A DNA stretch of 63,986 bases, counting the filler, from Stramenopiles sp. TOSAG23-6 (Eukaryota), in assembly GCA_900128565.1 (NCBI GenBank). It is 7 parts of 7 records of this genome, joined end to end, with 100 filler letters (N's around TTAATTAATTAA, not from the genome) between each part and the next. Parts side by side here need not be neighbours in the genome. Positions count along the whole stretch, not along the records: positions 18,523 to 27,675 come from LT636392.1; 6 more parts are not named here. The stretch is one strand, 5' to 3'. The translations under genes were made by a program, and so were the position numbers. Below are positions 1,129-55,394 of this stretch, in pieces. Every line of letters begins with the position of its first letter. Position 1 is the first letter of the stretch. The notes below the pieces were generated by a model. The model was given only the letters and a program-made list of their open reading frames with translations. It was not told the origin of the DNA and ran no database searches.

Positions 1129-2639
1129 ATGCATCTTTCAGCCATATTTGTCGTGAACGTACAAGGAGATGTAGTCATCCAGAGATATTACCGTGATGAC
1201 GTCTCGAAAACTGCAACGAATAATTTCAAGCTGCAAGTTATTGCTGCAAAGGAAGCTGGTGCGCAACCTCCAATCAAGGTAATTGATAATAGTACGTTTA
1301 TGTATTTGCGGCATGAGGATATTTATTTCGTGGCTGTAACCAGATTAAACTCAAATCCAGCTCTGGTATTTCAATTTATGTGGAATTTAATCAAAATTTT
1401 TGACTCCTATTTTAGTGACGGTAGAAAAAAATTTGGAGAGAAACAGCTAAGAAATAACTTTACCCTTGTGTATGAACTTTTGGATGAAGTCATGGACTTT
1501 GGATATCCTCAAACTACGTCTGTCGATCTACTACAGCTTCACATCAATACTGGGGAAATGCGAAAGAAATTGGCAGAGAAAAATGTTAAATTAGATCCCA
1601 AAGACCTAACTGGAGCTGTTGATTGGCGAACAGAGGGTGTAAAACACAAAAAAAATGAAATTTTCATTGATGTTATTGAGCAAGTTGAATTATTGATGTC
1701 CACTAATGGTGCTGTATTACGAAGTACAGTACAAGGCCGTGTCATGTTTGTTAACCCTAACCCTAATATACATTTCTTTTTTTTTTGTATAAAATTTTTG
1801 TACCTAACAAGTTGTACTACTATATATATATTCACCATTATATGATGAAAGCATTTCTCTCTGGAATGCCAGAGTGTCGATTTGGGTTAAATGATAAAGT
1901 TTCTATGGATAAAGATGAAAAACGCGGCGGCTTACGCGCAAAGAGGTCCGTGGTGTTAGATGACTGCAGCTTCCATCGATGTGTACGTTTTCATTATGAA
2001 TTTTTTACCTAAATTTTTTTTTTTTGGTTTTTTATAAAAATGTTGTACCTAACCAAAAAACAAATTTCGAATTTAATTTTTTTTACAATACATGTTCGAC
2101 TTGGAAAGTTTGAAGATGATCGTAGTATTACTTTTATCCCTCCAGATGGTGTTTTTGAGCTAATGAGTTATCGTATTACTAATAATGTAAAGCTACCTAT
2201 TCGAATTCTTCCTGTAATCGAAGAACAAGGATCGACAAAAGTCATTATTAACTTGAAAATCCAGGCCAATTTTTCAGCAAATTTATTTGCTAATAAAGTT
2301 GTAATTAAAATTCCAGTCCCTAAAAATACTGCTAGAGCTAAAGTGCGTGTGGGTTGTGGTAAAGCAGCATATGAAGTTTCTGATAGTGCCATTGTTTGGA
2401 AGATTCGTCGCTTGCCAGGTGCTTCAGAGTATACATTGAATGGTAAAGTAGAATTAATAGCATCTTCAAGTGGAAAGTCTTGGTCTCGAGAACCTGTGAA
2501 GTTAGACTTCCAGGTTCCGATGTTTACTTCTTCAGGTATGCGTGTTCGTTTTCTAAAAATTTATGAGAAATCAAACTATAATACAACAAAATGGGTGAGA
2601 TATTTGACGAAAGCGGGTCACTATAATCACCGAATTTGA
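1129..2639 (+). CDS. AP2M1: AP-2 adaptor complex mu subunit; exons 1129-1745, 1844-1982, 2094-2639
   Basis: Motifs NNFTLVYELLDEVMDFGYPQ, VDWR.EG.KHKKNEIFIDV, MKAFLSGMPECRFGLND, FHRCVRLGKF..DRSITFIPPDG and KWVRYLTKAG.Y..R. The three ORF pieces join after removing two non-AG introns. Confidence 0.95.
1746..1843 (+). mobile_element. Non-canonical intron, GT...AT (98 nt), diverged family member
   Basis: GTC AT|GTTTGT...TACCTAAC...CCATTATAT|G ATG AAA restores GRVMMKAFLSG. Confidence 0.85.
1983..2093 (+). mobile_element. Non-canonical intron, GT...AT (111 nt)
   Basis: TGT|GTACGT...TACCTAAC...ACAATACAT|GTT CGA restores conserved FHRCVRL; it has an in-frame stop and no AG after the branch motif. 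Confidence 0.92.
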
Positions 2640-5432: not shown

Positions 5433-5807
5433 TTATTTTCGAAGTTTTGAGTCATCCAAACAATTAATACGATTCGTCACAAATTTAGCAACTTCATTAG
5501 CAAGTTTATAGTATGTATCATTAGGGTCGCTATTAAATAGTTTACAATTATCACACATGCGCTTAATATCTGCCAAATACATGTTTTTTGAAGTATAATA
5601 TTCTTCGCCTTCAACATCAACACGTCTTTGAATAATTGACATATCAATCGGCTCTTTTACAATTTTAAGATACTCAGGATAAGTCACAGTATGAATTATG
5701 AAAAAATATTTCAAAAAAAAAAAACTAAAATTTGTTAGGTACAAATTTTCGTACGAAAAATAAATTCGAAATTGAAAAACAAATAAAACATGCGTTCTTC
5801 GGCTCGA
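5433..5807 (-). CDS. Bromodomain, C-terminal exons (GCN5/PCAF-like); 5' end lost at single-N join
   Basis: EPKN|TVTYPEYLKIVKEPIDMSIIQRRV...YLADIKRMCDNCKLFN...YYKLA. Confidence 0.75.
   Translation of the reverse strand, partial: SSRRTHVLFVFQFRIYFSYENLYLTNFSFFFLKYFFIIHTVTYPEYLKIVKEPIDMSIIQRRVDVEGEEYYTSKNMYLADIKRMCDNCKLFNSDPNDTYYKLANEVAKFVTNRINCLDDSKLRK
5691..5793 (-). mobile_element. Non-canonical intron, GC...AT (103 nt)
   Basis: AAC|GCATGTTTTA...TTTCGTACGAAA...TACCTAAC...ATAATTCAT|ACT; near-consensus family copy. Confidence 0.8.
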
Positions 5808-6716: not shown

Positions 6717-6816
6717 ATTTATTGTAGGGAAAATATTTTTTACAATTTGAAATTCGTTAGGTATGAAATTTTCTATAAAAAAAGAAATTGAATTGAATTG
6801 AATGATGAAAACATAC
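6717..6816 (-). mobile_element. Family intron, GT...AT (~100 nt), host gene unidentified
   Basis: GTATGTTTTC...TACCTAAC...TACAATAAAT|GAG. Confidence 0.65.
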
Positions 6817-6912: not shown

Positions 6913-7002
6913 ATTTATTTTGGAAAAATATTTCAAAAAAAAATTGTTAGGTACAAAATTCCGTACGAAAAAAAAAATGAAATTTGAAAAAAAAAAACAT
7001 AC
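6913..7002 (-). mobile_element. Family intron, GT...AT (90 nt)
   Basis: TT|GTATGTTTT...TTCGTACGGAATTTTGTACCTAAC...CCAAAATAAAT|G. Confidence 0.75.
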
Positions 7003-9108: not shown

Positions 9109-9164
9109 ATGTATTTTGGAAAAATATTTCAAAAAAAAAATCGTTAGGTACAAAATTTCGTACG
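9109..9164 (-). mobile_element. 3' half of family intron (...CCAAAATACAT|TT), contig end
   Basis: Consensus sequence up to the gap. Confidence 0.8.
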
Positions 9165-9264
9165 NNNNNNNNNNNNNNNNNNNNNNNNNNNNNNNNNNNN
9201 NNNNNNNNTTAATTAATTAANNNNNNNNNNNNNNNNNNNNNNNNNNNNNNNNNNNNNNNNNNNN
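9165..9264. other. Artificial contig linker (N-TTAATTAATTAA-N); further copies at 18467, 27720, 36907, 46092 and 55256
   Basis: Six-frame stop linker flanked by N runs; contig lengths decrease along the window. Confidence 0.97.
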
Positions 9265-9343
9265 AAAATATTTCAAAAAAAAATCGTTAGGTACAAAATT
9301 TCGTACGAAAAAAAAATCGATTTTGAAAATAAATAAAATATAC
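9265..9343 (-). mobile_element. Family intron, 3' end cut by gap (CAT|GTATAT donor)
   Basis: Consensus core TTTCGTACGAAATTTTGTACCTAAC. Confidence 0.8.
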
Positions 9344-10043
9344 ATGTGTAAGAGTCTGGTATTTCAAAAGATAACGTTGGTTTTGGATTTTTTTGTGATG
9401 ATATATTTTCTGTTTTACCTTGAGAAGATTCGCAACTTTGTTTTGTTTTTATTGGATGATACACATGTATTTAAAAAAATATTTTAAATTCGAAATTCGT
9501 TATGTACGTAATGTATATGAAAAAATAAATAATTTGAAATTAATTATGAAAACATACAATTTCAGAGTTATCAGTGGTAATTCCTATTTGGTGTATACTC
9601 TCTTGGGGAAAAATTTCATCTTGAAAAGATTCGTATGTAAAGAAAAACAACATTGAAGTTTTCAGTGAAATACCACAAAGAAACCAAATAAAGCACGTAA
9701 AAATCAGTCGAACTTGTTGTGTTAAATGAGCATGTTCCACATTGGTCAAATTATCTACAGTGTAGCTAACAAAAATTCCCCAGAATGCAAATACTCCCCA
9801 ATAAAAAGTATTGCGCAATTTTGTAAAATGTGAAGAAGAATCCACGTTTCTTTTTGGTCGCCAAGTCATATATAGATGGAAAAAAAGGAAAAACTCCCAG
9901 AAGAAAAAATACAAGAAGTTTTTTAACTTTTTCAAATCCTGATCAACCGGTGTGTATGCGAACGCTGAAAGAACCGATGTGTGTGTGTGTGCGAACGCTG
10001 AATGCACTACTGATAACATACTAATTGTGAAGCTTAAAAGCAA
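9344..10043 (-). CDS. Hypothetical membrane protein, 5' exons; start uncertain
   Basis: Hydrophobic ORF joined in frame to exon 9464-9344 across a family intron. Confidence 0.4.
9465..9557 (-). mobile_element. Family intron, GT...AT (93 nt)
   Basis: ATT|GTATGT...TACATAAC...TAAATACAT|GTG, in frame. Confidence 0.78.
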
Positions 10044-10384: not shown

Positions 10385-12724
10385 ATGGGGCGACGCAAAG
10401 GTCGAAAGGTGGGCATAAGTCATGAAAGTCAAACCACAACTCGATATAGGTACTCTCCGTCAGTATCACCTAGGGTTAGACGTGCAGCTGCACATGCAGC
10501 CACTGCATTTCGAAGACGAAAAGATATAGACACGAGATTCAAGAGGCTTGACGGTTTCAAAAAAAGACAAAAGAAGAATGATAGTGAGTGGCTCAATATT
10601 TCTCCTACTCGAAAAGCTCAAAAATCAACCTCTTCTGCACATGCGCGAACGTCTCAACAATATGTTTTACCGATATGGAAAACAATTACTCAAACTGTTA
10701 CGAGGATTGCTGGAGCAAAACGTCGTGTTGACAGCAAAAAAAGACGTATACCAGTTACAAAGACATTCGAATTTAGGGTAAATATGGCAACTGAAGTAGC
10801 TAAGTTGACTACCTCTACAGGTGTGAAGAACCTCGGTTTTGCAAAGCAATATTCTCAAGATTATTTCGTGTATATTCCAGTATCATCTAAAGAACTAAGG
10901 AGTTCCAAGTGTACATACAAAGACTTATTTACAGGTTGCTGCTTGTCTTTACCGATGTCTTTTCGTAATGGGCGTACGTTGTCAACTTATATTACATTTA
11001 TGTTTTTGTACCAAATTTCATAATTAACGAATTTCAAATTTGACATATTTTTTCACAATGCTTGTACCAAGAAAGAAACAGTGACAACAAGTAGAATTAC
11101 ATCACGCACAAGATTACAAAAGAAGGCAAGAGTGAAAGCAACACGAAATTCTCGTAAAATCATACAAAATGAGATTGAAGAAGTATTGTTTAGAGGTGGA
11201 AATATCTCCGTAGCCAACATAGGTGAAGACTCTTCAAATTGCACATTCAAAAAATATAACTTTTCTGAGTCATTTGTGATTGCACTGTGTCCACATCCAA
11301 CGGGAAAGTATTTAGTAAACACTGAAAAGATTAGTCTCTTTGATAGAATGAAGAATGCAAAAGATTTTAATAGACAATGCGAATTAAGAGCAAATGGTAT
11401 TTTTTACAATACAACAGAATCTTCGCAAACAAATAAATTGAAACCTCCGTTTGCAATATCTGCAGCTATTATAGTGTCGCATTGGATTCCAATTCCCGAA
11501 CCAAATATGGTTGGTGATTTTGGGATTCCTCCTCCAATTATAAGCAATAAAAGTAAACAACGTTTCTTATCCTATCGGAAAAGATATAATATATTAACAA
11601 AAGTAAATGAACAACATATGATGGAAGTTTGGGAAATATGCTGGTTGGGCCGAAAATGGCCAACTGTACCAAAACCAGCGACATCTAAGAGAAGAAGAGA
11701 TATCATAAGAAAGCTTACATTAGGATTTTGGCATTCAAGTTTGATTAATCCAATAGAAATACCCCAAACAAATATATCCTCAAAAAGAGACGAGTATAGA
11801 AAATTTCGTAGTTCCAGAATTCCTCCTCGCTTTGACATCCACGAATCTATATTAATACATTATATAGAAGCAATTGGTAAACATCTTGGGGTTGCTGCGA
11901 TTCTAGTACAATCGGCAGAACACGATGTACCAACATTTATGCAGAGAATTCCATATAGTGGGTGTAATACTATCAAATTTTGTAGATACGAACAACCAGT
12001 TCTACGCAATAAACAAAGGAAAAAGAATTGGATTCATCAATTTTGTATTGCAAAAGATGAAAAACATGTCTTAAATCAGTATAAAATTAAAAAAGGTTCA
12101 CTTGGACCCTTGCAAGTATTTTATAATGGTACTAAAAATAGTACTAAAAAACAGAAACAAACAGTTATTTTGAAGAAAGGAAATACAAATACCAGAAAAA
12201 CGATTTTCAAAAACTTTAGATTCTCGCCTACATATATGATACATATATGGACATGTTTATACAAGCTACCACCATGTTTGACTGTACGTACTTCCAAAGA
12301 AAAAGAAAAAAAACGTATTTCACGAGTCATGTCACAAGAAGATATGGATCAAAGAGGAAATGATGCACAATTCAAAAGTCGTATGCAATATAAATACCAA
12401 ATTGGAACATTAAATCCCTGGGCTAATTTTGGAAATGGGGAAGAAGAAAGTAAAATTTCAAGTGATGTACTCGCGGAACTTGCGGATCTTGCCCGAAAAC
12501 GTGGTTATTCAAGTCCTACTGGTTCCATTTCAACAACCTCAAGTAATAGTAACTTTAAAAAACGTGTCAAAAAACTTACACGTAGCAGGAGTAGTGCGAA
12601 TATAAAACAACATCTCAACACACGATCCAGGCTGAAAAGGACAACATCATGGAGTGCTGGAAGTCGAGATAATGAATATGACCTGAAGCAGAAAGTGCTA
12701 GTATTTCCTAGAAAAGTTGAATAA
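10385..12724 (+). CDS. Hypothetical basic protein; exons 10385-10973 and 11064-12724
   Basis: Two long ORFs in the same frame separated by a 90-nt stop-containing intron; no family recognised. Confidence 0.6.
10974..11063 (+). mobile_element. Non-canonical intron, GT...TT (90 nt), diverged
   Basis: GGG C|GTACGT...AATTAAC...TTTTCACAATGCTT|GT ACC; no AG within the intron. Confidence 0.7.
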
Positions 12725-17767: not shown

Positions 17768-18522
17768 TTTAATTCAAACTTTTATATTTAATAAATATAT
17801 AGTAGTAGGATAGTAAGAAAAAAATTAAAATTTCGACTTGACCAACCAATTTTTTTAATTGATATTTCGTCGATCTTTTTTAAGAGGTAAGTAAAGACAA
17901 ATCGATGTTTTTCGTGTTTTGTGTTTTCGCGTAACCGTTTTTCAAGTTTGCTGTCTAAACGCATACAAAATTAGAAATACTTTCTCAATATATTGCTGTT
18001 GCTATTTTTCACCAGCAATGTCACTTAATACAGATAATAAAACACAATGATAGTTTAGTATCCACTTTGATATTATGGAAAAACAATGAATAACTTTTGG
18101 AGCCATTTATGATATAATTCAATATGTTTGTTGGCATTTTCAAATGTGTGTACTATAAACCCAGCAGATTATAGTGATACTGCTTCCTACTGTATGGAAA
18201 ATTGTAGACAATTGTTGATATTCTTGTCCTTCTATGATTACTACGTGCCAAGTAATAGTTTCTTGTAATGGATTTACTTGTTTTCTGTATTATTTTATGT
18301 GTTTAAAGTATATTTTTACCGTGATTGTCTATCACTTTTAGACTGGAGGAATGAAACACCGCATGTCACTGTAACCATATCACTCCAACTTTTTCATTTG
18401 TCCATGAATCGCTCTGAAACTTNNNNNNNNNNNNNNNNNNNNNNNNNNNNNNNNNNNNNNNNNNNNTTAATTAATTAANNNNNNNNNNNNNNNNNNNNNN
18501 NNNNNNNNNNNNNNNNNNNNNN

Positions 18523-18576
18523 GTACGAAATTTTGTATGAAAAAAAAATTAAATTAGAAATTCATATAAAACATAC
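18523..18576 (-). mobile_element. 5' half of family intron (GCT|GTATGT), contig start
   Basis: Shares an identical 5' sequence with copies at 27776 and 36963. Confidence 0.8.
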
Positions 18577-21046: not shown

Positions 21047-22564
21047 TCATTTTGATTTCAATTCAGGATTGAGTTTATCAAACTTTCCCCAATCTCTTGG
21101 AGCAATTACTTTATCTTTCATTGATTTTGATGTTGATCCAAAATTGGCTTTATGAAACTCCCAATCCCTTGCCATGTATTTTAGAAAAATATTTCAAAAA
21201 AAAAACTAAAATTTGTTAGGTAAAAAATTTACTATAAAAAAAAATCATACAAAAAAAAAAATAAAACATACATAATGGCTTCATCTGTTATTGAGTTTCT
21301 TCCTTCCATATAGATATCGTTTAAGCCTTCGTTCTTACCAGGAAATTTCTTTCCTGTCACCACAGCTTTTGGAGTACCATTTACTATGACTCTATCACGA
21401 GGTGTATTGATATACGGAATGCCTACAATTCCATTTCCGGGAAGTATCGGTGGTATGATAGTGCAAACATCATGTATTTTGGAAAAATATTTCAAAAGAT
21501 TTTTTTGTAAAAAAAATAAAACATACATCATCTAAACAAGAAACGCAATCCTTAATGTGTAAATAAATGTTACCTAATGGACGACTTAATTTATCAGTTG
21601 GTTTTTCTCCTGAAATATATTGAGCTTTCCACATACCACCTGCACCACTTTTAAATTGTTCATCATCCGGTCTTTGTTGTATACTTTCAATATCTCTACC
21701 CATGTATTTTGGAAAAATATTTCAAAAAAAAAAAAACTAAAATTTGTTAGGTACAAAATTTCGTATGAAAAAAAATTCGATTTTTTTTTTACCGGAAAAA
21801 AAAAATAAAACATATATATCTTGCATCCAATCAGTGTGTGAAAAATCCTGAAAATCAAAAATTGAAGCAACTTTTATACATTGATGATTACACAAAGGTC
21901 CAAAAATTTCGATGCACTTCATTCGGAGTTCTTCTTCACCAGTAAATGTTGCACCTTTAAATTTTTGTGACGACGTGCGTTGTACCAATTGAGTACAAAA
22001 TGACTGAGTGTTGAAAATAGATGTATATGAACTCTTATTTTTCTCTAGCCATTTTGATTTATCACCATCGAATGACTTCCATAATAATTTCTCCATAGCA
22101 CGAAGTAGATTGTTATTGTTATAACAAGTCTGTCCTGAACCATGGTACCGGATGACAGATTTAGTTTCATCCTTAGCGTCTTTCTTTTCCGTTGAAATTA
22201 ACCATGACTTGTTCTGTTTATTTGAAGATGTTGTGATAGTACCTATTTGACCAAATATTCGCCCCTCATCACCATAAGATGGCCCATATAACTTCTTACT
22301 CTTTTCTTCTTTACCGTAAATGTCAAAACCTATACCCGTGGTTGATGCAGGTATGGTATCACTCACCCAACCTCTTTTGGCTGCATATTTGGGGTCCGTG
22401 TTTGACGAGTGAGGGAAGATTCCAGAGTCAAGTCCAGGAATTCTTATAGGATGCTGTGGGTCTCTCATATTTGGATTTTCTGCATGAACTATTTGAATTT
22501 GAAAATCCATTATATAAAGAACTAACACGAGAAAGTTGTGAATGATGATTGATTTAAATTTCAT
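21047..22564 (-). CDS. Hypothetical secreted protein; exons 22564-21816, 21701-21527, 21471-21272 and 21173-21047
   Basis: Signal-like N-terminus; four ORF pieces join in frame after removing three family introns. Confidence 0.65.
21174..21271 (-). mobile_element. Family intron, GT...AT (98 nt)
   Basis: ATT AT|GTATGT...TACCTAAC...AAAATACAT|G GCA. Confidence 0.82.
21472..21526 (-). mobile_element. Internally deleted family intron, GT...AT (55 nt), no branch motif
   Basis: GAT|GTATGTTTTATTTT...CCAAAATACAT|GAT; frame is restored only if it is removed. Confidence 0.7.
21702..21815 (-). mobile_element. Family intron with ATATGT donor, AT...AT (114 nt)
   Basis: GAT AT|ATATGTTTTA...consensus...AAAATACAT|G GGT. 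Confidence 0.7.
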
Positions 22565-22819
22565 AATGATGCATCAATTACACATAGATCTTCTTCAGTT
22601 TTCTGATGTACTACTGTACGTAAATGATTGTCTCTGATCTCAGATCTTGAAATTTCAAATTTTTGTGTGAACACCAAAACCTCCGACGTCCAAGATTTCG
22701 TGTTTCTTACACAAAACAGTACAAATTACAATGTATTCTGAATTTATTGAGAGTAAGTACTATTTCTTACTATATAGAATATAGAATACTCTCTTTTTAT
22801 TGTAATTATTTACCAGTAA

Positions 22820-22975
22820 ATTTTGATTATTTTTTATTTAATCAAAGCTGCAAGGTCGAATATTGTTCAATAAACTAAAGACAGATTCCACAAATAATAA
22901 ATTTTGATTATTTTTTATTTAATCAAAGCTACAAGGTCGAATATTGTTCAATAAACTAAAGACAGATTCCACAAA
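22820..22975. repeat. ~81-bp tandem duplication covering the stop region of the CASC1-like gene
   Basis: ATTTTGATTATTTTTTATTTAATCAAAGCT.CAAGGTCGAATATTG...CACAAA twice. Confidence 0.85.
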
Positions 22976-24107
22976 CAATGGATCTTCATTTTCAGCAACT
23001 GCTCCCAAAGCTTCTTTGCCACATTTTTCTTTGGATACTACATTTGATAGATACGAATGCGTTTTCTCTCCATGCATTGCTTTCCCACTAGACCAACTCT
23101 TATCTGTTTCACTTGCAGCACTCCATAAACATTTTACCCCACGTTTGGCATCGTCATCATGTATTTTGAAAAAATATTTCAAAATTTTTTTTAAAAAATT
23201 CGTTAGGTACAAAATTTTGTATGAAAAAAGAAATACATTTGAAATTCATGATAAAAACAAACATTTTCATAGTAAATAGTCCACCAACCATCATCTGGAT
23301 CTGTCGTAGGAATTATACCTAATTTTTTTTCTCCAATTTTGTTAGGCAGTAAAGATTCTTCTGGGGCTTCTCGCATCAGAAAGACAGCAGCGCTTTCCAC
23401 GCAACTTTTATTCCAATTTGAATTTCTAATTTCGAAGCCTGCTGAGATATTAGCAATATCGCGATACATTTTATTTTCCAATGTAGACGATTTGGTCTGT
23501 TTATTCAATGTTTTAGCATCATTTTCGACAAAGCAAAGTGAAATCCCTACATCAGCCAGTGTATTAATCAGCTGTCGTGCATGTATTTTGTAGAAATATT
23601 TCAAAAAAAAAACTAAAATTTGTTAGGTACAAAATTTCGTACGAAAAATAAATTCGAAAATTGAAAAAAAAATAAAACATACATTCATCCTTTTCCCAAT
23701 TATATTTGCAAGTTCTGGAACATTTGGTCCAATTGCGGCACAACCATTCGATGTAATTGAAATATCTACCACAGAAGTTTGAGTCACGACAGTAAGCTGT
23801 GCCTCTGATGGCGAAGTGCGCAAAGGTCTCAGGTAAAAATTTTTTATTGGCAAACCTGCATGGTGGGGTGTTATAAGTGATAGAATTCCAACTTTCACTG
23901 TACTAAATGTAGCGATTCTAGAATCAGCATCCAAGGATACATCAGTTATGCCTTTTTTCTCCCATTGTCCTGACTCTTTGTTCCACCACCCGACTGTTAT
24001 CTCTTTCCCGCCACTATCATGTCGCGGCAGAACAATTGTAGATGGTATCTGAAAACTAACTCGTATCGGTTGCACAACAGTTTTCCCTGGCGTGCCTTCA
24101 GGAGGGT
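22919..24107 (-). CDS. CASC1/IC97-like axonemal dynein intermediate chain, C-terminal exons 24107-23683, 23580-23263 and 23158-22919
   Basis: Recognised from motifs GWW.....WEKKGITDV, F.T..VG.L.L and P...F.LRP; needs HMM confirmation. Confidence 0.55.
23159..23262 (-). mobile_element. Family intron, GT...AT (104 nt)
   Basis: AAT|GTTTGT...TACCTAAC...AAAATACAT|GAT, in frame. Confidence 0.85.
23581..23682 (-). mobile_element. Family intron, GT...AT (102 nt)
   Basis: AAT|GTATGT...TTTCGTACGAAA...AAAATACAT|GCA, in frame. Confidence 0.87.
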
Positions 24108-24199
24108 ATGTATTTTGGAAAAATATTTCAAAAAAAAATTGTTAGGTACAAAATTTCGTACTAAAAAACAATTTGAATTTGAAAAAAAATAAAACATAC
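24108..24199 (-). mobile_element. Family intron, GT...AT (92 nt), joining exons of two apparently different genes
   Basis: Consensus sequence; donor is phase 0 but the downstream exon needs phase 1. Confidence 0.8.
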
Positions 24200-27619: not shown

Positions 27620-27675
27620 ATGTATTTTGGAAAAATATTTCAAAAAAAAATTGTTAGGTACAAAATTTCGTACGA
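27620..27675 (-). mobile_element. 3' half of family intron (...AAAATACAT|GTT), contig end
   Basis: Consensus sequence. Confidence 0.8.
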
Positions 27676-27775
27676 NNNNNNNNNNNNNNNNNNNNNNNNN
27701 NNNNNNNNNNNNNNNNNNNTTAATTAATTAANNNNNNNNNNNNNNNNNNNNNNNNNNNNNNNNNNNNNNNNNNNN

Positions 27776-27802
27776 TAAATTAGAAATTCATATAAAACAT
27801 AC
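27776..27802 (-). mobile_element. 5' end of family intron (AT|GTATGT), contig start
   Basis: Identical to 18550-18576. Confidence 0.7.
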
Positions 27803-28198: not shown

Positions 28199-28289
28199 GT
28201 AGGTTTTCAAAATTGAATTTCAAATTTTTTTTTTGTACCAAATGTTGTACCTAACAGCTTTTTTTTTTTAATATTTTTTCACAATACTT
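28199..28289 (+). mobile_element. Family intron, GT...TT (91 nt)
   Basis: GTAGGT...TACCTAAC...TCACAATACTT|GG TCT GAA; the exon resumes at the conserved kinase Trp. Confidence 0.72.
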
Positions 28290-29241: not shown

Positions 29242-30179
29242 CTATGCAGACATATCCATTCCACTTTCAACTTGTGGTGCAATGTTTCTAACCGTCTTTG
29301 AAATCACTGTTGTCACGCCGCTTTGAATACTGAACTTACTTGGTCTATGAACATTAGCGCGTAGCTTGGAGACATCATTTGGCTTTTCGACTCCTCTGAA
29401 GTACTCTTTAGTACCATTATTCCTTAAAACCATCACGTCAACATTACTTCCGGAACCAAGGTCATTCCATATACCGGATAAAATTGCACGCTTTACAAGT
29501 TGCTTTGCCTCTTCTTCCGATAAGCCTTCTTTGAAACCCGTTTCAAAAACTGACATTGCACAGAGACTTCCACTTCCCATTGTTACATATGCTGTGGTGT
29601 GTGAGATTGAAAAATTACATTGAAATGTTAGGAATATGATGGTGGTTGTGAAATATTTCTTTGGTTTCATTTATATCGTATATTTAACCTACGCAATTTA
29701 TCGGTTGACCCATGAGGATAAACTGTGTAAAGGTGGGCACCAGTGTGATCGGTGCCTCCGAGGACTAATGCGGCGCTCACGTGACCTTGGTATCTGAACA
29801 AATATTTCTTGAGGCGGGTCATTGCAGTGACTACTCTTGATTGAGTTCCAGTTTCCATTCTCAATAACTTTAACTGATTGCTAACCATCTCAGTCACATT
29901 CTCGGTGTCTGCTGACGTTCCAGCTCCACAACAATAGATATTTGGAGCTATGTAGTGAATTTTTTCACAATTTTTATCACAAACTGTTGATCCTTCTGTA
30001 GCACGAGTATCAGCACCGAGTACCACACCATCTTTAAAAACTACGCCGCAAATTGTCGTACCCGTTTTATGAGCGCCTGGGGGTTTCAATCCGGCATCTT
30101 TTTGGATCAACTTGTTGCGCTCAACATTGTCAAAATCAAAGCCTGCTCTGGCTACACCATGGTAATCAATTAATGTCAT
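29242..30179 (-). CDS. PSMB7: 20S proteasome subunit beta-2; exons 30179-29693 and 29591-29242
   Basis: [43 protein letters not shown] and [13 protein letters not shown]. Confidence 0.95.
29592..29692 (-). other. Canonical GT-AG intron (101 nt), not a repeat-family member
   Basis: TTG C|GTAGGT...TTCCTAAC...CACCACAG|CA TAT restores KLPYVTMG. Confidence 0.92.
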
Positions 30180-36862: not shown

Positions 36863-36962
36863 NNNNNNNNNNNNNNNNNNNNNNNNNNNNNNNNNNNNNN
36901 NNNNNNTTAATTAATTAANNNNNNNNNNNNNNNNNNNNNNNNNNNNNNNNNNNNNNNNNNNN

Positions 36963-37026
36963 AAATCGTTAGGTACGAAATTTCGTATGAAAAAAAAATT
37001 AAATTAGAAATTCATATAAAACATAC
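36963..37026 (-). mobile_element. 5' part of family intron (GG|GTATGT), contig start
   Basis: Consensus core and branch motif. Confidence 0.8.
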
Positions 37027-39323
37027 CCTTCATCACATTCAATAGAAACCCCCATGACGGGACATATTGTACCCGGCGAACATTCAAATGTCAGACCAAA
37101 GTTATCATTTATATTTTTTATATTTTGTTCTTTTTTATCACGTATGGTATTTGTAGAAACATCACATGCCTGAGGTGGTAATAAATGTTCTTCCAAACAA
37201 CTTTCTTGATTACGAGAAATAGTTGTATTAAATGCTGCAATATTTCCCATTTTGTTAAATTCACCACTAATATAAATAATTTCATTTTTTACAAGAGTTG
37301 ACATAACTCTAGTTCTTTTGTCTTCTGAATATTTATTTGGAGAAAGAAAAGGAATGATTTTATACGTCGAACCTGTAGGAGTTTTCGATACAGATGTTTT
37401 ATACAAATCTACACGAAATATTGCCATTGGTGTTACTATTTTGCCTTTTTCTGTATTCATATATTGAAATGAACCCCCAATAAATGCAGAGATACAACTT
37501 CCATTTACATATTCACGACACACACATGTATTTTGGAAAAATATTTAAAAAAAAAAAAATTAAAATTTGTTAGGTACAAAATTGCATACGAAAAAATTTA
37601 GACAAAAAATTGAAAAAAAAAAACCATACATGAATACACAGCACTAGCATCATCAAAAGAAATAATCGAAGGATAAAACGTTGGTATTTGATTTTGTTGA
37701 GTTGTATCCTGAAATAAAACTAGTTCCACAATATTAGGAGAATTATTAGACACAAACGACATGTATTGTGAAAAAATACGAATTGTCGNAAAAAAAAAAA
37801 NCGTTNGGNACGAAANTTNCGTATGAAAAAAACAATACATTTGAAATTGAAAAAAAATAAAAGGTACATTTTAAATTGACCACCGACTAATAGTCTATCG
37901 TTGTCAAGTCGAAGTAAATCGTTAACAGGTCCTGGGGTTCCATGACAACACAATGTAGGCATACATTGTAGGAAAATATGTCAAATTTGAAATTGTTTAG
38001 GTCTGTTATAAAATGTAAAATCGTACGAAAAAAAAAAAATAAAAAAAAAATGAAATGAATGATGAAAAATATACATCTCAAAAAAAAAAAAAAAATCTTT
38101 TTTGTTTATAGGTATAAAATTTCATACTAAAAAAAAATTAAATTTCAAATTGAAATGAATGATGAAAAACATACACACTACACAAATAAGGAAATACTTT
38201 AAATCCTAAAGTAGGAAAACAAGTGAATTCATTATTGGGATTATTTGGGTAAGTTGAATTTGTATCCCACATAGCTAGATTCGATGCCATTGATGATCCA
38301 GCATAAGTAAATATACCACCAACAACGACTCGGTTTGGACTGAGTAAGTATTGTGAAAAAATATGTCACTATTGTTTTTGGTTAGGTATAGAATTTGTAT
38401 AAAATAAATAATTTTGAAATTTATAATGAAATCAAACACCGCAATCGCTCGAACAACACCATTAACTCCAGGTATACCACCACTATGTGTCATTGGTATA
38501 ATATTGATTGGTATACCTCTATGATTAGTTTTGTTGTAATATATCTTAATTTTAGCTATGTATTTTGGAAAAATATTTCAAAATGTTTTTGTTAGGTACA
38601 AAATTTCGTACGAAAAAAAAATTGGAATTTGAAAAAAAATAAAACATACATATTATTGACAGTTTGAGCACCCAAGTTTTCAAATTTTCCTCCAATATAA
38701 ATTTCTTCACAGTTAGAAGTGTCCATCAAAGGAGGAATAGCATCAGCACATACCATATCAAATACTCCCACAGAATTTGAAGTTGTGTTCAATCCTACAA
38801 TGTTTGTGTTATTTACATATAACGGTAAAAAAACTTCCTTTTTCGTGTCAAAAGCAGCTATGTGGTTTACAGTCTTGTTTTCAGACTTCTGAAAGTATCC
38901 ACCAACAATTAAATAGTCTTGATTTTTTGGGCATAACATACTAAAAACATTACCCATGAGGATATTTGGATCCTCTTTTTGCATCACGGAAGCATTCTCA
39001 ATATTTATTTGGCCAGGACCAATTGCGGAAAGGGCACGCCATTGATAATCACTGTCACAACTGTGTGTCGCATTGCGAATGCACTTTTCATATACAGCAA
39101 AGTTAAATGCAGTATTATTCCCCTGTATTCGATTGAAAATACCACCTACATACAACTTACCATTATGAATACACTGAGTATTACCATACTTTGGAAGTTC
39201 TATACTACTTTCTATGTCTAAATATCCATTTTTAGAAATTTGAAAAGACAGATGCTCAGCTACTAATTGTCTCATCAATAATAGACATGATAATATTACT
39301 AAACTCTTCAAGGAAGCATTCAT
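37027..39323 (-). CDS. Secreted/membrane beta-propeller protein (Rax2-like lyvGGxF repeats) followed by a Cys-rich segment; six exons, 3' truncated
   Basis: Signal peptide; LYVGGIF, LIVGGYF, IYIGGKF, VVVGGIF, LLVGGQF and FIGGSF repeats; exons join in frame across family introns. Confidence 0.65.
37526..37629 (-). mobile_element. Family intron, GT...AT (104 nt)
   Basis: TCA T|GTATGG...AAAATACAT|GT GTG, in frame. Confidence 0.82.
37761..37867 (-). mobile_element. Family intron, GT...AT (~107 nt, contains Ns)
   Basis: AAA AT|GTACCT...CACAATACAT|G TCG, in frame. Confidence 0.75.
37961..38174 (-). mobile_element. Tandem twin intron (214 nt): units 38174-38075 and 38074-37961, both GT...AT
   Basis: Two donors (GTATGT and GTATAT), each followed by TTTTCATCATTCATTTCA; junction TTTGAGAT|GTATAT; removal gives CSV|PTL in frame. 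Confidence 0.7.
38346..38437 (-). mobile_element. Non-canonical intron, GT...TT (92 nt)
   Basis: GCG GT|GTTTGA...TACCTAAC...TCACAATACTT|A CTC restores RAIAVLSPNRVVVGG. Confidence 0.78.
38558..38649 (-). mobile_element. Family intron, GT...AT (92 nt)
   Basis: AAT AT|GTATGT...AAAATACAT|A GCT gives VNNIAKI; using the adjacent AG would give an immediate stop. Confidence 0.88.
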
Positions 39324-40420: not shown

Positions 40421-43400
40421 TTACATAAAGGAAGCCAATAGTTTTGGAAAGCTTCCGACTGCTTGACTAAATTCATTAATTTGAAGTTGTCCATCACCAG
40501 ATGCATCATATTTCTTCATAATAGACTGTGCTGCCGCCGCGGCCTTTTGTGTTGAACATCCAACTAAGACAGAGTACATGTATTGTGAAAAATATTTTTT
40601 TTGTACAATTTGTTAGGTACGAAATTTCGTACGAAAAAAAAATTAATTCGAAATTGAAAAAAAATAAAACATACATGGAAGAAAGCTCTTGTAAGTCTAT
40701 TGAATTCGAACTATCCTCATCAAATGCGGAGAAAGCAATCTTAATCTTTTCATCTCTACTTCCACGCATCACTGTACACAAACCTGTCACTAATTCTGCA
40801 ATAGAAACTGTTCCGGATCGATCGACATCAAAAGCGGAGAATAAACTTTCTATCGTCGGTGCCGGAATTCCCGCTTCTATGGAAGTAATTACCTGTGAAA
40901 ATTGAGCGCGATCCATTTGACCTCCTGGTATCATCCTGCGAAAATCTTGGATATATTTCATCAAACGAGGGAACGTAATTGTGACATTTCGAGCTTTCAA
41001 TGCTAGCTTAATTTGACCAAGGCCTGGCATTCGTGCATTTTGGATTCCCATGGCCCCAGCACCTCCATATCCACCACTAAACATACCTCCACCAATGCCA
41101 GGACCAAGACCAAGAGATCCACTTCCTCCAATCATTTGCATTCCTCCCATACCAGATCCGACTCCACCCATTGCTTCCATCGTATTCATAATACCAGCGC
41201 CCGCAGCATCACCACCTAAACCACCTCCTACAGCAGCAACGCCACCTAAACCACCCATAGCACCAACAGCAGCCACACCCCCTAAACCACCAGTAAGGGC
41301 AGCACCACCCATAGCACCCATTGCGGCTCTCGCTCCCATGGCAGCACCCATACCCATACCAATGCCACCCATGCCCATGTATTTTGAAAAAATATTTGAA
41401 ATTCGAAATCTGTTAGGTTCAAAATTTGGTGCAAAAAACATTAAAAAAATTCAATGTTGAAAACGTACATACCCATGGTACCAATACCTCCTCCAAGAGC
41501 GGCAGCTCCAATTCCAGCCATAGCTCTGTGACGATTTATTGCCATTCCCATATGCGCAACACGAGAACCCGCTTGCATCCCCATAGCCAATGCACCATCA
41601 CGACCAAGTCCCGGATCGTTCATGCCCATCGCCCTCATGACTTTGACATCTACCATGTTATTACCAATGGTTTGCGCACGTGCAACAGCTTTCTGGAGTC
41701 GCTCTTGGCTGTCCATAGTAACAAAGCCGCCAGAAGATGGATCTTTAATCTGTACTATGACTTGTGTACCGAACACTTGTGTGATATGGCGACGTAGAAC
41801 ATGCCATTCTAACTCAGGTGGAAATGGACCAATCACACGTTGAATAGCTGCATTCCAAGCAGCAACTGCTTGTATACGATATCCATTTGGACATGGTCCG
41901 TAGGGCATTGACCCACCCATACCACCACCCATCAATCCTTCAACACCCATATATTTACCACCAACGAGAACTAAATCAGGATTTTCCTCCTTAAGCATAG
42001 TCATATTTAGTGATGCTTTCTTCAGTCTATGCCGCTGTGCTCCTGCCTCAGTTGCAGATTTAAGAGCAGTATTCCACATTTGAAGCATTTGTGTGCAACC
42101 AAGAATCACTTCTCGGGAACGTCCTGTAGGATCCGAAGATGCTAAACTTTTGTGCATATCATGCATTTTTTGAAGTAACTCGTACGATAGCTGCTCAATT
42201 GAATGACTACTACCATCAGTAAGCCCTCTCCATGCTTGGAGTGAGTTCTTTGCAACCTCAGCTAATATAACCTTCATAAAAGCTCTTAATTTTTCCATCT
42301 GTTCCAATCCAAACATTTTCAAACCTTTTACATTTTTACTAGCGTCACTAATTAACATGTGCAATGTTTCTAGTACCGGAACGACGAGATCAAAGTTGTA
42401 CACGAAACCTTCAAACTTATACAATTTACTCATAATTTCATCTTTCTGTTGGAAATGTGAGAGAGATGTGAAAAGCCAACGTACCACATTTTCTTTGATT
42501 AGTTCTTCACGAACTTTTTTGTCGCCATCTGAAACCAACTCTTTAATTATATTAGCTGCACGGTGTGCTAATGACGCAGTGTTTAGCAAAACAAATATTG
42601 AACGCAACATACCATCATTATCACAACAGATAGCATGCTCCAAATCTAATTGAAGAAGCATTTCAATATTTTTGAGTGAAAGACTTTTGATAGAAGAGAC
42701 GATACCGTCAGAAATACCTTGATCTGGTCTTTCACTAAGATTTGTCATCATAAACATCAGAGATTTCAAATATGCAGAATTCATCTTATTACTTAACCAT
42801 GCACCAAATGCTTGGGTTTTTGGATAACCAGGATCCTCGGGTTTAACACTGAGCATAAACTGAAGACATCGTAAGCACGAGTGAGAAGTAAGCATCGCTT
42901 GTCGCCCAGTCTGCCATGATCCATTAATGTTATTCACTAAACAACGAGCGACATTTCCATCTAATCCTTCAGTTGCTCCAGGATAAAAACAAGCAAGTGT
43001 GTTGGCAAGACAAGTAACAACATAAGGATCTCGAGCAAGAAAACTTTGTAACCAATATGAAACTTTACGTGGTATAAAAAGTCTACCCATTCGATTGAAA
43101 TGTTCACCTTTCATAGGAGGATGTCCGTGACCGCATAATATACTCAGAACCCATAGAGCTGCACGCATACGTATTAATTCAACTGCAGGTGGTTGAATAG
43201 CAATTACTCTCGGATCTTCACAAATATATTGCAATATTGGAGCAATACTACATTCTACACGATCTTCTGGAATATCACATGCAATTGTTTGCCATTTGAA
43301 TAGATGCTCAATAACGAGATCTCTTGACGACGTGTTATTTGCTGCTATTGCACCAATCAAACGTAGAGCCCATAATTTAACTTCATTACAAGGTGAAAAT

Positions 43401-44848: not shown

Positions 44849-45951
44849 ATGAACAGCATGGAGAATGCTGCAACTCCGATGGATGTTGTTCAAACTTCTG
44901 GCACCAACCCAGCGGTAAAAACACCAATAGTAGCTGGTGCATTGGCAGACAATGTTTCTTCTACTACAACTTCAGAGATGTCAATATCAGACTCTTCTAC
45001 TCAACCACCTGTATTAAAGGATAATACAACATCGGATGCTACTCCAAGCATTTTACCACCATCAGTGATGGAACAATCAGAGTCTCCTGCTGTTGCAGCA
45101 GTGACTATATCGATCAGTGAGCGTTACCCAACTCTTAATGCGGAGTCTGCAAAACACCCTCGACCAAGTGATACGAAGCTTGACTATGGAACTGCAGGTT
45201 TCCGTCTACCTTCTGAAAAGTTGGATTCAACAGCTTTCCGTATGGGTCTTATAGCTGTTCTTCGTGCCAAACATCAAGGTGCTATTACTGGTATTTGTAT
45301 GACTGCATCTCACAATCCTATTGCTGACAATGGCATCAAATTGGCTGACCCTGACGGAGGTGTGATTGATCCGAGTTGGGAAGGATACTGCAATTTACTT
45401 GCAAATGCACAGGAAGGTAAGGTTGCTGAATGTATTCAACAAATTGTAGACGAAGAAAAAATTGATCTGGAAAAAGAAGCTAGTATTTTCATAGCTAGGG
45501 ACACTCGACCAAGTACGTTTTCAAAATTTCAAAAGTTTATTTTTTTTTTCGTACTAAAATGTGTACCTAACAAAAAAAAATCAAATTTTTGATTTTTTTT
45601 CACAATACATGTGGTGAACATCTCATAACTCTAGCGCGAGAAGCTGCTCTGATTCTTCGAGCGAATGTCCTCGACTTTGGTATTCTCACTACTCCTCAGT
45701 TACATTCTTCTGTTCGTATGTTTAATCTTGGTGACAAGATACATTTCACTGAATCTGGTTACTACAAAATGGTAAGTGATGCATTCATAAGCTTGCTTTC
45801 CACCACTGAAGATCAAAATCAGTTGGAAACAAGAGACTGGAATATTATTGTAGATGGGGCGAATGGAGTTGGTGCTCACAAATTAGCTAAATTACAAGTA
45901 GTTCTTGGTGATGCTGGGCGTCTAAAACTAGAAATTCGCAATGGTGGAAAT
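44849..45951 (+). CDS. PGM3: Phosphoacetylglucosamine mutase; exons 44849-45512 and 45611-45951; 3' truncated
   Basis: YGTAGFR, MTASHNP..DNGIKL.DP.G, RDTRPSG, TTPQLH and VDGANGVG. Confidence 0.93.
45513..45610 (+). mobile_element. Non-canonical intron, GT...AT (98 nt)
   Basis: CCA A|GTACGT...TACCTAAC...CACAATACAT|GT GGT restores conserved DTRPSG. Confidence 0.92.
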
Positions 45952-46047
45952 GTACGTTTTATTTTTTTTCAATTTCTAATTTTGTTTTTTATAAAAATTT
46001 TGTACCTAACAAATTTTAGTTTTTTTTTTTTTGAAATATTTTTCCAA
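45952..46047 (+). mobile_element. Family intron cut by contig end (AAT|GTACGT)
   Basis: Consensus sequence. Confidence 0.82.
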
Positions 46048-46147
46048 NNNNNNNNNNNNNNNNNNNNNNNNNNNNNNNNNNNNNNNNNNNNTTAATTAAT
46101 TAANNNNNNNNNNNNNNNNNNNNNNNNNNNNNNNNNNNNNNNNNNNN

Positions 46148-46235
46148 TGTATTTTGGAAAAATATTTGAAAAAAAACGTTAGGTACAAAATTTCGTACGA
46201 AAAAACATTGGAATTCGAAAAAAAATAAAACATAC
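46148..46235 (-). mobile_element. Family intron at contig start (TAT|GTATGT...AAAATACA)
   Basis: Consensus sequence. Confidence 0.82.
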
Positions 46236-48792: not shown

Positions 48793-49772
48793 ATGTCGTT
48801 AGATTTTGACTCGTCCGGCTCATTGCCTCCAACGAAAAGCAATCAGCCAGACTTTGAGAAGTTAGGGACTGGTGTGAAAAGTTGGAATTCAATATTCTCC
48901 GCTCCAATATTTGTACTTTTTTCTTTCGGTGCAGTATGTGCTGTGTTGTTGACGACAGAGATTAAGCAAATGCCATCATATTATTCTGACAACGTGCCCA
49001 TGAGAGAAATGCACAAGCAAGAGTCCCCTGTAGTACCCCAAATTACTATATCAACTCACAATCAGTCAACTGCAAAAGTTGTGCGTTCTCAAAGTGGATC
49101 AATTCTAAAAGAGGTGAAGGAACCTTTATTTGTTGAACCAAATTCTCATACAACATCAACACCGAAAAACATTGAGGATTCAGATAACATTATGCATAAT
49201 CCTAAAAATGTATCAAGTCTAAAGAAAGTTCAGAAACCTGAAAAATTTGAACCAAATCCTGAGACCATTCAACGGGCTATGGCCCAGAAAAAAACTAAAA
49301 ATGTCGCAAACTCAGTAAGTGACAGAAAAACAAATGCTAACAACTCAGACACAGAAACATCAACGAAAACTACTGAATATGATCATTTTACTTTACCAAG
49401 TTCTAAACCACAAAGTAAAAAAACGGCACACGAAAAGTTGTACGTTTTCATTTCAATTTCGAATTTATTTTTTGGTACGAAATTTTGTACCTAATGATTT
49501 TTTTTTACGTATACGTTTTCATTTTAATTTCGATTTTTTTTTGGTACCAAATTTTGTCCCAACACATTTTTTTTTTCAAATATTTTTCACAAGACTTGAC
49601 TTTACCAAAACCTGAATTTAGTATTACAAATTTGTTGATTCATCCAATTATGCCCGAATTGGCACGAATGATTGAGAAAGGATCTAAATTTGAGGGAAAA
49701 AAACACGTTGATATTTTGCCCCCTGAGAATATTGTCTATCATCAGCATAAAATTCAAGAAGATGGAATTTAA
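48793..49772 (+). CDS. Hypothetical type II membrane protein; exons 48793-49439 and 49598-49772
   Basis: N-terminal TM and a low-complexity stalk; in-frame join across the intron. Confidence 0.55.
49440..49597 (+). mobile_element. Intron, GT...TT (158 nt), with an internally duplicated 5' module
   Basis: (G/A)TACGTTTTCATTT.AATTTCGA...GGTAC.AAATTTTGT occurs twice; ends CACAAGACTT|G. Confidence 0.75.
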
Positions 49773-55311: not shown

Positions 55312-55394
55312 TATTTCAAAAAAAAAACTTAAATTTGTTAGGTACGAAATTTCGTACGAAAAAAAATTCATAGTAAAAAAAAAATAAAACATAC
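55312..55394 (-). mobile_element. Family intron cut by contig start (mirror of 63904-63986)
   Basis: TTA T|GTATGT plus consensus core. Confidence 0.8.

Follow-up and report, generated by a model that had tools for sequence, protein, structure and literature searches.

A family of AT-flanked, introner-like GT...AT introns in the genome of an uncultured marine stramenopile

Introduction

Introners are said to have been described as transposon-derived introns by Huff et al. in 2016. They are spliceosomal introns that derive from transposons, and they occur in Micromonas, Aureococcus, Chrysochromulina and other mostly marine eukaryotes (PMC11282704; PMC9860276). In some introners the 5' splice site belongs to the element and the duplication provides the 3' one (PMC9860276, section 7), and DNA-transposon signatures are described for most of the non-fungal families (PMC9860276, section 8). 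Here we describe one repeated element, with copies of about 55–215 nucleotides (nt), in a stretch of DNA of 63,986 nt (the 64-kb window, to which all positions refer). Copies interrupt two minus-strand genes at 21170-23690 and lie elsewhere across the window. They form introns that start with GT and end, in most cases, with AT, the exon before them usually ending with AT as well. Twenty-eight introns were fixed in this register by open-frame continuity, homology or RNA. For 26 of these there is open-frame continuity on both sides of matches to the element; the other two, both in the MOGS gene and missed by nhmmer, were placed by homology. In what follows a caret marks a splice junction or an insertion point, Y and R stand for pyrimidine and purine, exon positions before the intron are negative and the first base of the next exon is +1.

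The family is an introner in kind, its variant features being the AT repeat and the GT...AT (or GT...TT) boundary that results. As in introner families, there are many near-identical short introns in unrelated genes, which are genic and sense-biased and whose removal restores the mRNA. One splice site is borne by the element and the other lies at a short flanking direct repeat, and the host is a marine protist, stramenopile hosts of introners being known. The family differs in that the flanking repeat is AT, so that the 3' site is AT (or TT) and not AG; the repeat is moreover invariant, and the inverted repeat is 4–6 nt. Introner surveys that are based on annotation would miss such a family, since AG is imposed in gene models.

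In function, the nearest parallel comes from an animal, Fritillaria. In F. borealis and F. pellucida, introns come from non-autonomous DNA transposons whose terminal repeats are the splice sites (Henriet et al. 2019, as cited in PMC13326754 and PMC11282704). A 3' AT is frequent there, following a normal U-rich tract, and YAY makes up the last three bases and often also stands before the 5' site (PMC13326754). The 5' ends are not GT, the AG/AC and AG/AT intron classes being dominant (PMC13326754; PMC11282704). The present introns share the YAY end (CAT or TAT, 23/28) and the YAT before the donor (15/28). Unlike Fritillaria, the host is a stramenopile, hence the likeness is convergence, the 5' end is GTATGT (GT in 27/28) and not AG, and one family is dominant in place of many intron classes.

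Three further systems are relevant. ISL2EU transposons, members of the PHIS (PIF/Harbinger-ISL2EU-Spy) group, make 5'-AT-3' duplications at the palindromic site A^AT^T (PMC4482050, section 5). Their inverted repeats are 6–259 base pairs (bp) long and start with GG, they encode a DDE/THAP transposase and have YqaJ partner open reading frames (ORFs), and they are described from animals only (PMC4482050). The present copies resemble them in the AT dinucleotide that flanks them (both ends in 18/26), the palindromic extended target and the short inverted repeats, but they sit at Y^AT^R, with A at -3 in 4/26 and T at +1 in 2/28, and their ends start with GT and not GG. Fungal introner-like elements, for which spread by reverse splicing has been proposed (PMC9860276, section 8), are likewise repeated introns of about 100 nt that are strictly genic and sense, with no demonstrable duplication or long inverted repeat, and their copies also decay into ordinary-looking introns. 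They are GT-AG introns, whereas the present family combines complementary ends with an AT that is invariant at either side. In Amoebophrya, a dinoflagellate parasite, introner introns have inverted repeats, short duplications and non-GT/AG ends (PMC11282704); there the duplications are 3–5 nt and variable and the splice sites diverse, whereas the present introns are all of one fixed type, GT...AT.

Full-text searches of one literature library, supplements excluded, found no report of GT-AT or introner-type introns in the marine stramenopile (MAST) lineages among the papers listed, as judged by title and abstract opening. Two MAST genome papers refer to introns no more than in passing: the parts covered of PMC5778133 do not mention splicing, and those of PMC5269757 speak of "few but long introns". 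The family described here would add a heterotrophic marine stramenopile to the lineages with large-scale creation of introns by a mobile element. It suggests that a flanking repeat of AT in place of AG does not bar an element from turning into an intron, provided that the spliceosome is tolerant of it. The same solution appears to have been reached independently in Fritillaria, which bears on the question of why AG is otherwise near-universal. The family is also a natural experiment for 3' splice-site choice, with fixed ends, a bypassed AG, and variants that end with TT or start with A.

The element and its splicing

An nhmmer profile seeded with nine copies was used to search the window at a threshold of E<0.1. 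It gave 44 matches, nine on the plus strand and the remainder on the minus strand, which correspond to about 38 distinct copies. These are spread over more than 15 genes, at a density of about one copy per 1.7 kb. All of them (~38/~38) are genic, and every copy is in the sense orientation of its host gene.

Read in the sense direction, a typical copy follows an exon ending with AT and begins with GTATGTTTTATTTTTTTT and a variable T-rich stretch. Its 3' part consists of CGTACGAAATTTTGTACCTAAC, sometimes AAATTTTAG, a T run and GAAATATTTTTCCAAAATACAT, and the next exon usually starts with G. Each copy bears a yeast-like 5' splice site, GTATGT. The branch box, TACCTAAC, is situated 33–45 nt before the end of the element; a CTAAC box at this distance from the intron end, with a U-rich tract, is found in 19/28 introns. 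The U-rich tract is followed by the fixed 3' end of the element, ...AAAATAC, and then by AT. RNA folds contain recurring nested helices (GUAU/AUAC, UUCAAA/UUUGAA and GUACGA/UUGUAC), with z from -4.7 to +1.2; the GUAU/AUAC helix and two nested helices recur in 5/8 folds. The best-scoring copy (46978..47076) has a perfect terminal complement of 7 nt.

The summed contig depth reaches 25,390 in element bins, against 5–9 in unique bins, a quantity that is not a copy number and shows only high repetition of the element in the sequenced sample. The contigs of DNA run X3 end at elements; an element-free allele was not seen among them, and they are unable to exclude one. A 17-nt core motif was found at 64 loci in metagenome contigs, none of which has the element by nhmmer. 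A 41-amino-acid (aa) translation of the element, used as query in a representative search for read-through peptides, gave no matches. No transposase was found in the 64-kb window, and an Rfam scan of the window found no small nuclear RNA (U1 and U5 included) and no other family.

Blocks of the form N44-TTAATTAATTAA-N44 occur at 9165-9264, 18423-18522, 27676-27775, 36863-36962, 46048-46147 and 55212-55311. They have stops in all frames and resemble scaffold or concatenation linkers. Most of them lie inside element copies, so the assembly breaks at the element, and contigs tend to end within the repeat.

Removal of element copies was observed in RNA for two introns. A poly-A metatranscriptome contig of 548 nt (run X9, record 28) skips 23158-23261 and 23580-23681, and a second one of 382 nt (run X10, record 3) skips 23158-23261. 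Both runs are from seawater and belong to one study, and the contigs have 0–1 mismatches each. The spliced products, ...GAAAATGATGACG... and ...GGATGAATGCACG..., read exactly AT^G. Because ATG is repeated, the cut position in RNA is ambiguous by up to 3 nt, and the aligner put the cut one base over. The intron 23581-23682 has a TTTTAG some 10 nt downstream of the branch box, and the RNA shows that splicing passes over it. Nine further junctions are placed by homology, and the others by frame continuity only.

In the span 21170-23690, removal of the introns gives a 416-aa ORF in the first gene, which when unspliced reaches a stop at codon 275, and an uninterrupted 326-aa ORF in the second. No homologue of the first gene was found either in Protein Atlas or in a longer homologue search, and its three junctions accordingly come from frame continuity only. 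One of the copies in the span (21702..21815, minus strand) is otherwise well preserved but has ATATGT in place of GTATGT; judging from the frame, it is probably an intron too.

Two introns, at 37961-38174 (minus strand) and 49440-49597 (plus strand), each hold two tandem element units, and that at 47732-47859 (minus strand) has a 37-nt internal duplication. Each compound intron has one 3' end only, which makes partial tandem duplication look likelier than nested insertion.

The register of the introns was examined at copies in genes with homologues. In PGM3, the junction codon A^GT aligns with the Ser of DTRxS in both solved homologues (Ser137 of 4bju_A), and exon 2 resumes at residue 138 without a gap; a shift of -1 or -2 turns this Ser into Cys. 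In the AP-mu gene, GRVM+MKAF across intron 1 is collinear with residues 201/202 of AP-2 mu, and ...FHRC+VRLGKF across intron 2 with residues 251/252 (Cys251/Val252, chain 2bp5_M), where the conserved Cys would become Tyr under a shift of -2. With five introns removed, MOGS has a coding sequence (CDS) of 1749 nt with no stop, which is collinear with six homologues at every junction. These junctions include GSPSRP^FFPRGFLWDEGFH, VQPSG^WLPREQILG (identical to homologue P0122) and SVH^YWGAR, and a shift of +1 is disfavoured by SVH^YWG and SRP^FFPRG. Judged from these alignments, GT...AT is the only register that agrees with all the constraints from AP-mu, PGM3 and MOGS. The first-pass annotation of the window had favoured the same register, arguing that the Ser codon of PGM3 excludes both shifts and that the Cys at AP2M1 intron 2 excludes the 2-nt shift. 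Both arguments hold, since the Ser is aligned with the conserved Ser of the solved homologues and the Cys with Cys251 of 2bp5_M, and the MOGS junctions agree.

It is very improbable that GT...AT is a mere appearance and that the true ends are AT...AC (shift -2) or TG...CA (shift -1). Where the ATG repeat is perfect, neither the RNA contigs nor the frames distinguish between these registers, but the residues of PGM3 and AP-mu do so for the negative shifts, as H^YWG and P^FFPRG of MOGS do for +1. The minor, U12-type AT-AC introns have a donor of the ATATCC type, a branch site 10–20 nt from the 3' end and no U tract. Here the donor GTATGT is a standard U2-type one, no ATATCC donor is present, the branch box is 33–45 nt from the 3' end and there is a U-rich tract. 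Non-conventional introns of euglenids have a stable end-joining helix, no U tract and non-GT/AG ends; in the present introns the GUAU/AUAC helix is seen in 5/8 folds, though with variable z, and a U tract and a GT donor are present.

Junction sequences

The background for the flanking bases was taken from long ORFs of the window, 38 kb in all, and binomial tests were made on 26 of the introns. The upstream exon ends with AT in 21/28 introns; in the background AT makes up 9.1% (9.45% before any exonic GT), and the enrichment has p=6e-15. Position -1 is T in 26/28 (background 28.8%, p=2e-11) and position -2 is A in 22/28. No upstream exon ends with AG (0/28). Downstream, the +1 base is G in 23 introns, A in three and T in two, where G has a background of 19.8% (24.6% after exonic AT; p=2e-12). 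The introns start with GT in 27 cases and with AT in one, and end with AT in 24 and with TT in four. AT flanks both ends of the intron in 18/26. At position -3 there is C in 7/26 and A in 4/26.

These figures bear out much of what had been noted before. The first-pass annotation had counted T as last exon base at 35 and AT as last two bases at 26 of 40 donors, which is reproduced by the 28 introns together with seven gap-cut copies, four ambiguous ones and one canonical GT-AG intron. Its observations that no exon ends with AG and that the first downstream base is mostly G also hold, and a within-window form of the genome-wide background comparison that it named puts AT, T and G all far above the ORF background (p from 6e-15 to 2e-11). 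The typical junction that it gave, AT^GTATGT...ATACAT^G, is right as regards the upstream AT, the GT and the terminal AT, but the full ATG is present at both ends in 15/28 only.

The one canonical intron is in a proteasome beta gene and has the flanks GC^ and ^CA, unlike the element introns. A scan for further GT-AG introns in the window was noisy, and this intron alone was convincing; with a single canonical GT-AG intron, the host's own acceptor and exon-junction consensus cannot be defined from the window.

The flanks change with the state of preservation of the copy. The profile score was taken as a proxy for age, separating nine copies with at least 45 bits from 19 with fewer. The upstream AT is present in 9/9 of the former and 12/19 of the latter, and Y at -3 in 8/9 and 10/19. 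For G at +1 the best-preserved copies show, if anything, a lower frequency (6/9, with R in 8/9, against 17/19), and T at -1 is kept in 17/19 of the copies below 45 bits. Young copies read Y-AT-GTAT...ATAC-AT-R, which is two-fold symmetric. The upstream (Y)AT thus resembles an insertion relic worn away by coding drift. The +1 G seems to have been kept, or selected, as a signal, and looks like a preference in splicing or survival. Stratifying the flanks by divergence, as had been proposed, therefore gives a divided answer among the copies of the window: AT is strongest in the best-scoring class and +1 G is not.

Origin of the introns and their flanks

The reading that we favour, with a probability of about one half, is that of an introner resembling a miniature inverted-repeat transposable element (MITE), in which the AT target duplication supplies a non-canonical 3' splice site. 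A non-autonomous cut-and-paste element with the termini GTAT...ATAC would insert at Y^AT^R with a 2-bp duplication of AT; the upstream AT and the terminal AT of the intron would most simply be the two copies of this target-site duplication. The first bases of the element would serve as a strong 5' splice site, the branch box and U tract would also be borne by it, and the second AT, from the duplicated target, would be the 3' splice site. The spliceosome cuts on the 5' side of the first G and on the 3' side of the last AT, so that the element and one AT would be taken out and the coding sequence restored exactly. The +1 G would come from the symmetry of the target (R) together with the survival of copies that have a well-used 3' site. 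Antisense insertions would be A-rich, without a branch box and unspliceable, and hence purged. About 89% of the window is ORF or intron, and selection can therefore explain most of the sense and genic bias. We infer that the AT is a duplication and not a preferred site, that the mechanism acts at the level of DNA, and that there is selection at +1.

Duplication was assessed as in earlier work on introners, by testing for matches within each locus (PMC9860276, section 23), in 26 introns and with the expectation obtained by shuffling. Exon -1 and intron -1 match in 24/26 (24.0 expected), T being invariant and thus carrying no information. The intron and exon +1 bases match in 21/26 (21.3 expected). 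The exon is non-G at +1 in 5/28 introns that still start with G, and the one intron that starts with A has G at exon +1. The G therefore lies outside any duplication, which can comprise no more than AT. Because AT is invariant, its duplication is unprovable from the window.

Several results weigh against the favoured reading. At -3 the match is 7/26 with 7.1 expected, and this absence of locus-specific covariation means that the C at intron -3 is element-encoded. At -2 it is 20/26 with 17.2 expected (P=0.034), which is weak and confounded with copy age, so that no locus-specific duplication is demonstrable in the window; and of the four introns that end with TT, only one has TT upstream. With an invariant flank, as in AGgy...xyag families, a duplication and a site preference are indistinguishable, as Gozashti et al. 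(2022, PMC9860276) point out. The terminal inverted repeat is short, at 4 nt, or 6 nt counting the AT, and beyond the four terminal bases the complementarity of the arms is marginal (summed P=0.03, for copies that are non-independent). The symmetry of the target is imperfect over all copies, with +1 G in 23/28 against -3 C in 7/26, and the nine copies that give the Y-AT-R pattern are also those closest to the seed of the profile. Finally, no intergenic copy was found in the ~9–11% of the window that is intergenic, and no antisense copy was found by nhmmer in the 64-kb window, an absence that fits insertion at the RNA level at least as well. The proposal of the first-pass annotation that ATG is repeated at both ends is upheld for the AT and falls for the G, given the non-G bases at +1 and the lower frequency of +1 G in young copies. 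Likewise, the covariation check that it suggested finds the third base fixed and the second weakly covarying, and leaves duplication unproven.

Several of the results just listed suit the main rival process, which we regard as rather unlikely, in which excised GT...AT introns reverse-splice into transcripts at YAT^R, a site resembling a ligated junction, and are copied back into DNA. Nothing would be duplicated: the upstream AT would be a site preference of the spliceosome, and the terminal AT would be the intron's own. This would account for copies that are all genic and sense with none intergenic, for element ends that coincide exactly with splice sites, for a C at intron -3 that is fixed whatever the exon carries, and for the asymmetry between +1 G and -3 C. 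Fungal introner-like elements of the same profile have been given such an interpretation (PMC9860276, section 8). However, the loss of the upstream AT from older copies (12/19 against 9/9) shows that splicing does not need it, which would be odd had the spliceosome selected it. The usual base at exon -1 in the U1-pairing consensus is not T, so the T found here is a further difficulty. Reverse splicing also gives no reason for reverse-complementary ends (GTAT/ATAC plus AT); in a window that is ~89% ORF or intron, selection alone explains much of the genic sense pattern; and most non-fungal introners look DNA-based (PMC9860276). Between the alternatives originally offered, a DNA transposon with an ATG duplication or reverse splicing, the insertion of an element is the better supported, with reverse splicing as a less probable contender, and the ATG duplication is dropped.

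A DNA element could also have inserted with no duplication, either as TGTAT...ATACA between A and TG or as an AT-carrying element after AT, in which case the splice register GT...AT would differ from the boundaries of the element in DNA. In the 15/28 introns with ATG at both ends, all these parsings give the same DNA and mRNA; TGTAT/ATACA would be an inverted repeat of 5 nt, and there is a precedent in Spy, a eukaryotic cut-and-paste transposon that inserts precisely into AAA^TTT (PMC4482050). We nevertheless consider it improbable, because it needs a 3-nt ATG target and +1 is non-G in 3/9 of the best-preserved copies. The copies in PGM3 and AP-mu, though old, are without the required T or A at the 5' boundary, and nothing in the window favours this parsing over a 2-bp duplication. 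There is similarly little to recommend the view that the flanks reflect purely a requirement of splicing, by which exons must end with (A)T and start with G, and which is silent on insertion. It would explain why -1 T and +1 G persist in old copies (17/19 each), and context would matter, since the 3' site must be chosen among other ATs in the U-rich tract. Yet a third of the old copies, though their frames are still open, no longer have A at -2, and validated introns have GT^, AA^ and GC^ upstream (AP-mu intron 2, PGM3 and 10974..11063, respectively). The sole canonical intron has GC^ upstream and C downstream, and the view leaves unexplained why the exonic AT mirrors the last two bases of the intron.

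A bolder extension of the MITE-like reading is doubtful. The major spliceosome of this host would routinely work with U as the last intron base, skipping an AG 10 nt past the branch point for ...ACAU^G about 30 nt further on, and the 3' site would be marked not by AG but by pairing of the GUAU/AUAC ends, with a 2-nt AU overhang. An AT-duplicating transposon would then have seeded thousands of GT...AT introns, a protist parallel to Fritillaria hidden by gene models that force GT-AG.

Host and public gene models

The affinities of the encoded proteins point to the identity of the host. A NARF-like ORF has its best match in a EukProt CDS labelled GSMAST32 (60% identity), followed by oomycetes (37–39%), and the first MOGS exon is 99% identical to P0121, a CDS of the same MAST-labelled set. 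On this basis the host is an uncultured marine stramenopile of the MAST kind. A larvacean (Fritillaria-like) host, suggested by the YAY rule and the introns with 3' AT, is ruled out by the protein affinities.

The public MOGS CDS P0121 (window 46150-48506, minus strand) contains the translated element pieces VFFFLKYFSNIH and CTLSAIISIVFFYTKFCT, has a false C-terminus, with a tail ...FFFKYFSKI that ends inside an element, and skips real exon sequence. The presence of translated element pieces indicates that the GT...AT introns were evidently not recognised when the model was built, and it seems that canonical AG acceptors within the element were imposed on it. Systematic errors are therefore likely in the protein sets of such genomes at every place where GT-AG is enforced.

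Features of the window

Table 1. Element copies and comparator intron in the window. Junctions are given in the sense direction.
Feature	Positions	Strand	Junctions	Placement and remarks
Intron	21174..21271	-	TAT^GTATGT...ATACAT^G	nhmmer 4e-21; frame continuity, phase 2; 416-aa ORF when spliced
Internally deleted copy, 55 nt	21472..21526	-	GAT^GTATGT...ATACAT^G	frame continuity; without CTAAC box
A-start copy, probable AT...AT intron	21702..21815	-	TAT^ATATGT...ATACAT^G	frame restored only on removal
Intron	23159..23262	-	AAT^GTTTGT...ATACAT^G	removal in RNA (X9 record 28 and X10 record 3, same product)
Intron	23581..23682	-	AAT^GTATGT...ATACAT^G	removal in RNA (X9 record 28)
Intron, exon +1 A	24108..24199	-	TAT^GTATGT...ATACAT^A	frame; RNA fold z = -4.7
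AP-mu intron 1, old copy	1746..1843	+	CAT^GTTTGT...TTATAT^G	homology
AP-mu intron 2	1983..2093	+	TGT^GTACGT...ATACAT^G	homology
Old copy, TT end	10974..11063	+	GGC^GTACGT...ATGCTT^G	frame, 197 and 552 open codons
PGM3 intron	45513..45610	+	CAA^GTACGT...ATACAT^G	homology
Two tandem units, one intron	49440..49597	+	GTT^GTACGT...AGACTT^G	frame
Old copy	6717..6816	-	TAT^GTATGT...ATAAAT^G	frame
Copy	9465..9557	-	ATT^GTATGT...ATACAT^G	frame
Copy	37526..37629	-	CAT^GTATGG...ATACAT^G	frame
Copy	37761..37867	-	AAT^GTACCT...ATACAT^G	frame
Two tandem units, one 214-nt intron	37961..38174	-	TGT^GTATGT...ATGTAT^G	frame
Old copy, TT end	38346..38437	-	GGT^GTTTGA...ATACTT^A	frame
Young copy	38558..38649	-	TAT^GTATGT...ATACAT^A	frame; RNA fold
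Copy	40578..40674	-	CAT^GTATGT...ATACAT^G	frame
Copy	41377..41468	-	TAT^GTACGT...ATACAT^G	frame
MOGS intron, TT end	46496..46591	-	GAT^GTACCT...ATACTT^G	junction VQPSG^WLPREQILG
MOGS intron	46712..46817	-	CAT^GTACGA...ATATAT^T	missed by nhmmer; junction GSPSRP^FFPRGFLWDEGFH
MOGS intron, best-scoring copy	46978..47076	-	CAT^GTATGT...ACATACAT^G	frame, homology; RNA fold z = -4.1
MOGS intron	47509..47601	-	CAT^GTATGT...ATACAT^T	junction SVH^YWGAR
MOGS intron, internal 37-nt duplication	47732..47859	-	AAT^GTACGT...ATACAT^G	missed by nhmmer; homology
Copy	50063..50155	-	TAT^GTACGT...ATACAT^G	frame
Young copy	50333..50431	-	TAT^GTATGT...ATACAT^G	frame
Young copy	50594..50683	-	CAT^GTATGT...TTACAT^G	frame
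Linker-broken copy or copies	9109..9343	-	5' AT^GTATAT; 3' ATACAT^T	
5' part, ABC-transporter gene	18523..18576	-	CT^GTATGT	linker-cut
Linker-broken copy	27620..27802	-	AT^GTATGT...ATACAT^G	
5' part	36966..37026	-	GG^GTATGT	linker-cut
5' part, second PGM3 intron	45952..46047	+	AT^GTACGT	
MOGS copy	46148..46235	-	AT^GTATGT	last base N at linker
5' part	55312..55394	-	AT^GTATGT	recurs at 63904-63986 (+) in 100% identical inverted duplicate
Degenerate candidate, bromodomain gene	5691..5793	-	AC^GCATGT...ATTCAT^A	ends at odds with flanking frames
Candidate	6913..7002	-	TT^GTATGT...ATAAAT^G	frames fit only a donor 4 nt inward (GTAT^GT) or a downstream AG
Degenerate candidate	28203..28289	+	TT^GTAGGT...ATACTT^G	upstream exon not assigned
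Further candidate copy	near 8915-9010			ends not placed
Comparator, ordinary GT...AG intron, proteasome beta gene	29592..29692	-	TGC^GTAGGT...CCACAG^CA	not an element copy

The window ends in an inverted duplicate, 55312-57998 and 61300-63986, whose arms of 2687 nt are 100% identical and flank a histone H3/H4 pair. It starts at a linker, and could be a very recent inverted duplication, an amplification or an assembly chimera. An empty paralogous site was sought in it, and the identical arms were uninformative.

An open frame of 1683 codons at 50141-55189 (minus strand), with no function assigned, spans two complete copies of the element. Their lengths, 90 and 99 nt, are both divisible by three and neither has an in-frame stop, so that ORF calling from stop to stop hides these introns. 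The plus strand at ~31140-36900 has a G+C content of ~41%, against 33%, and an open frame of ~1900 codons with no introns. At 12892-14985 (minus strand) there is a gene for a predicted leucine-rich-repeat protein of 698 aa with a plant-type LRRNT_2 N-terminal domain, in a heterotrophic stramenopile.

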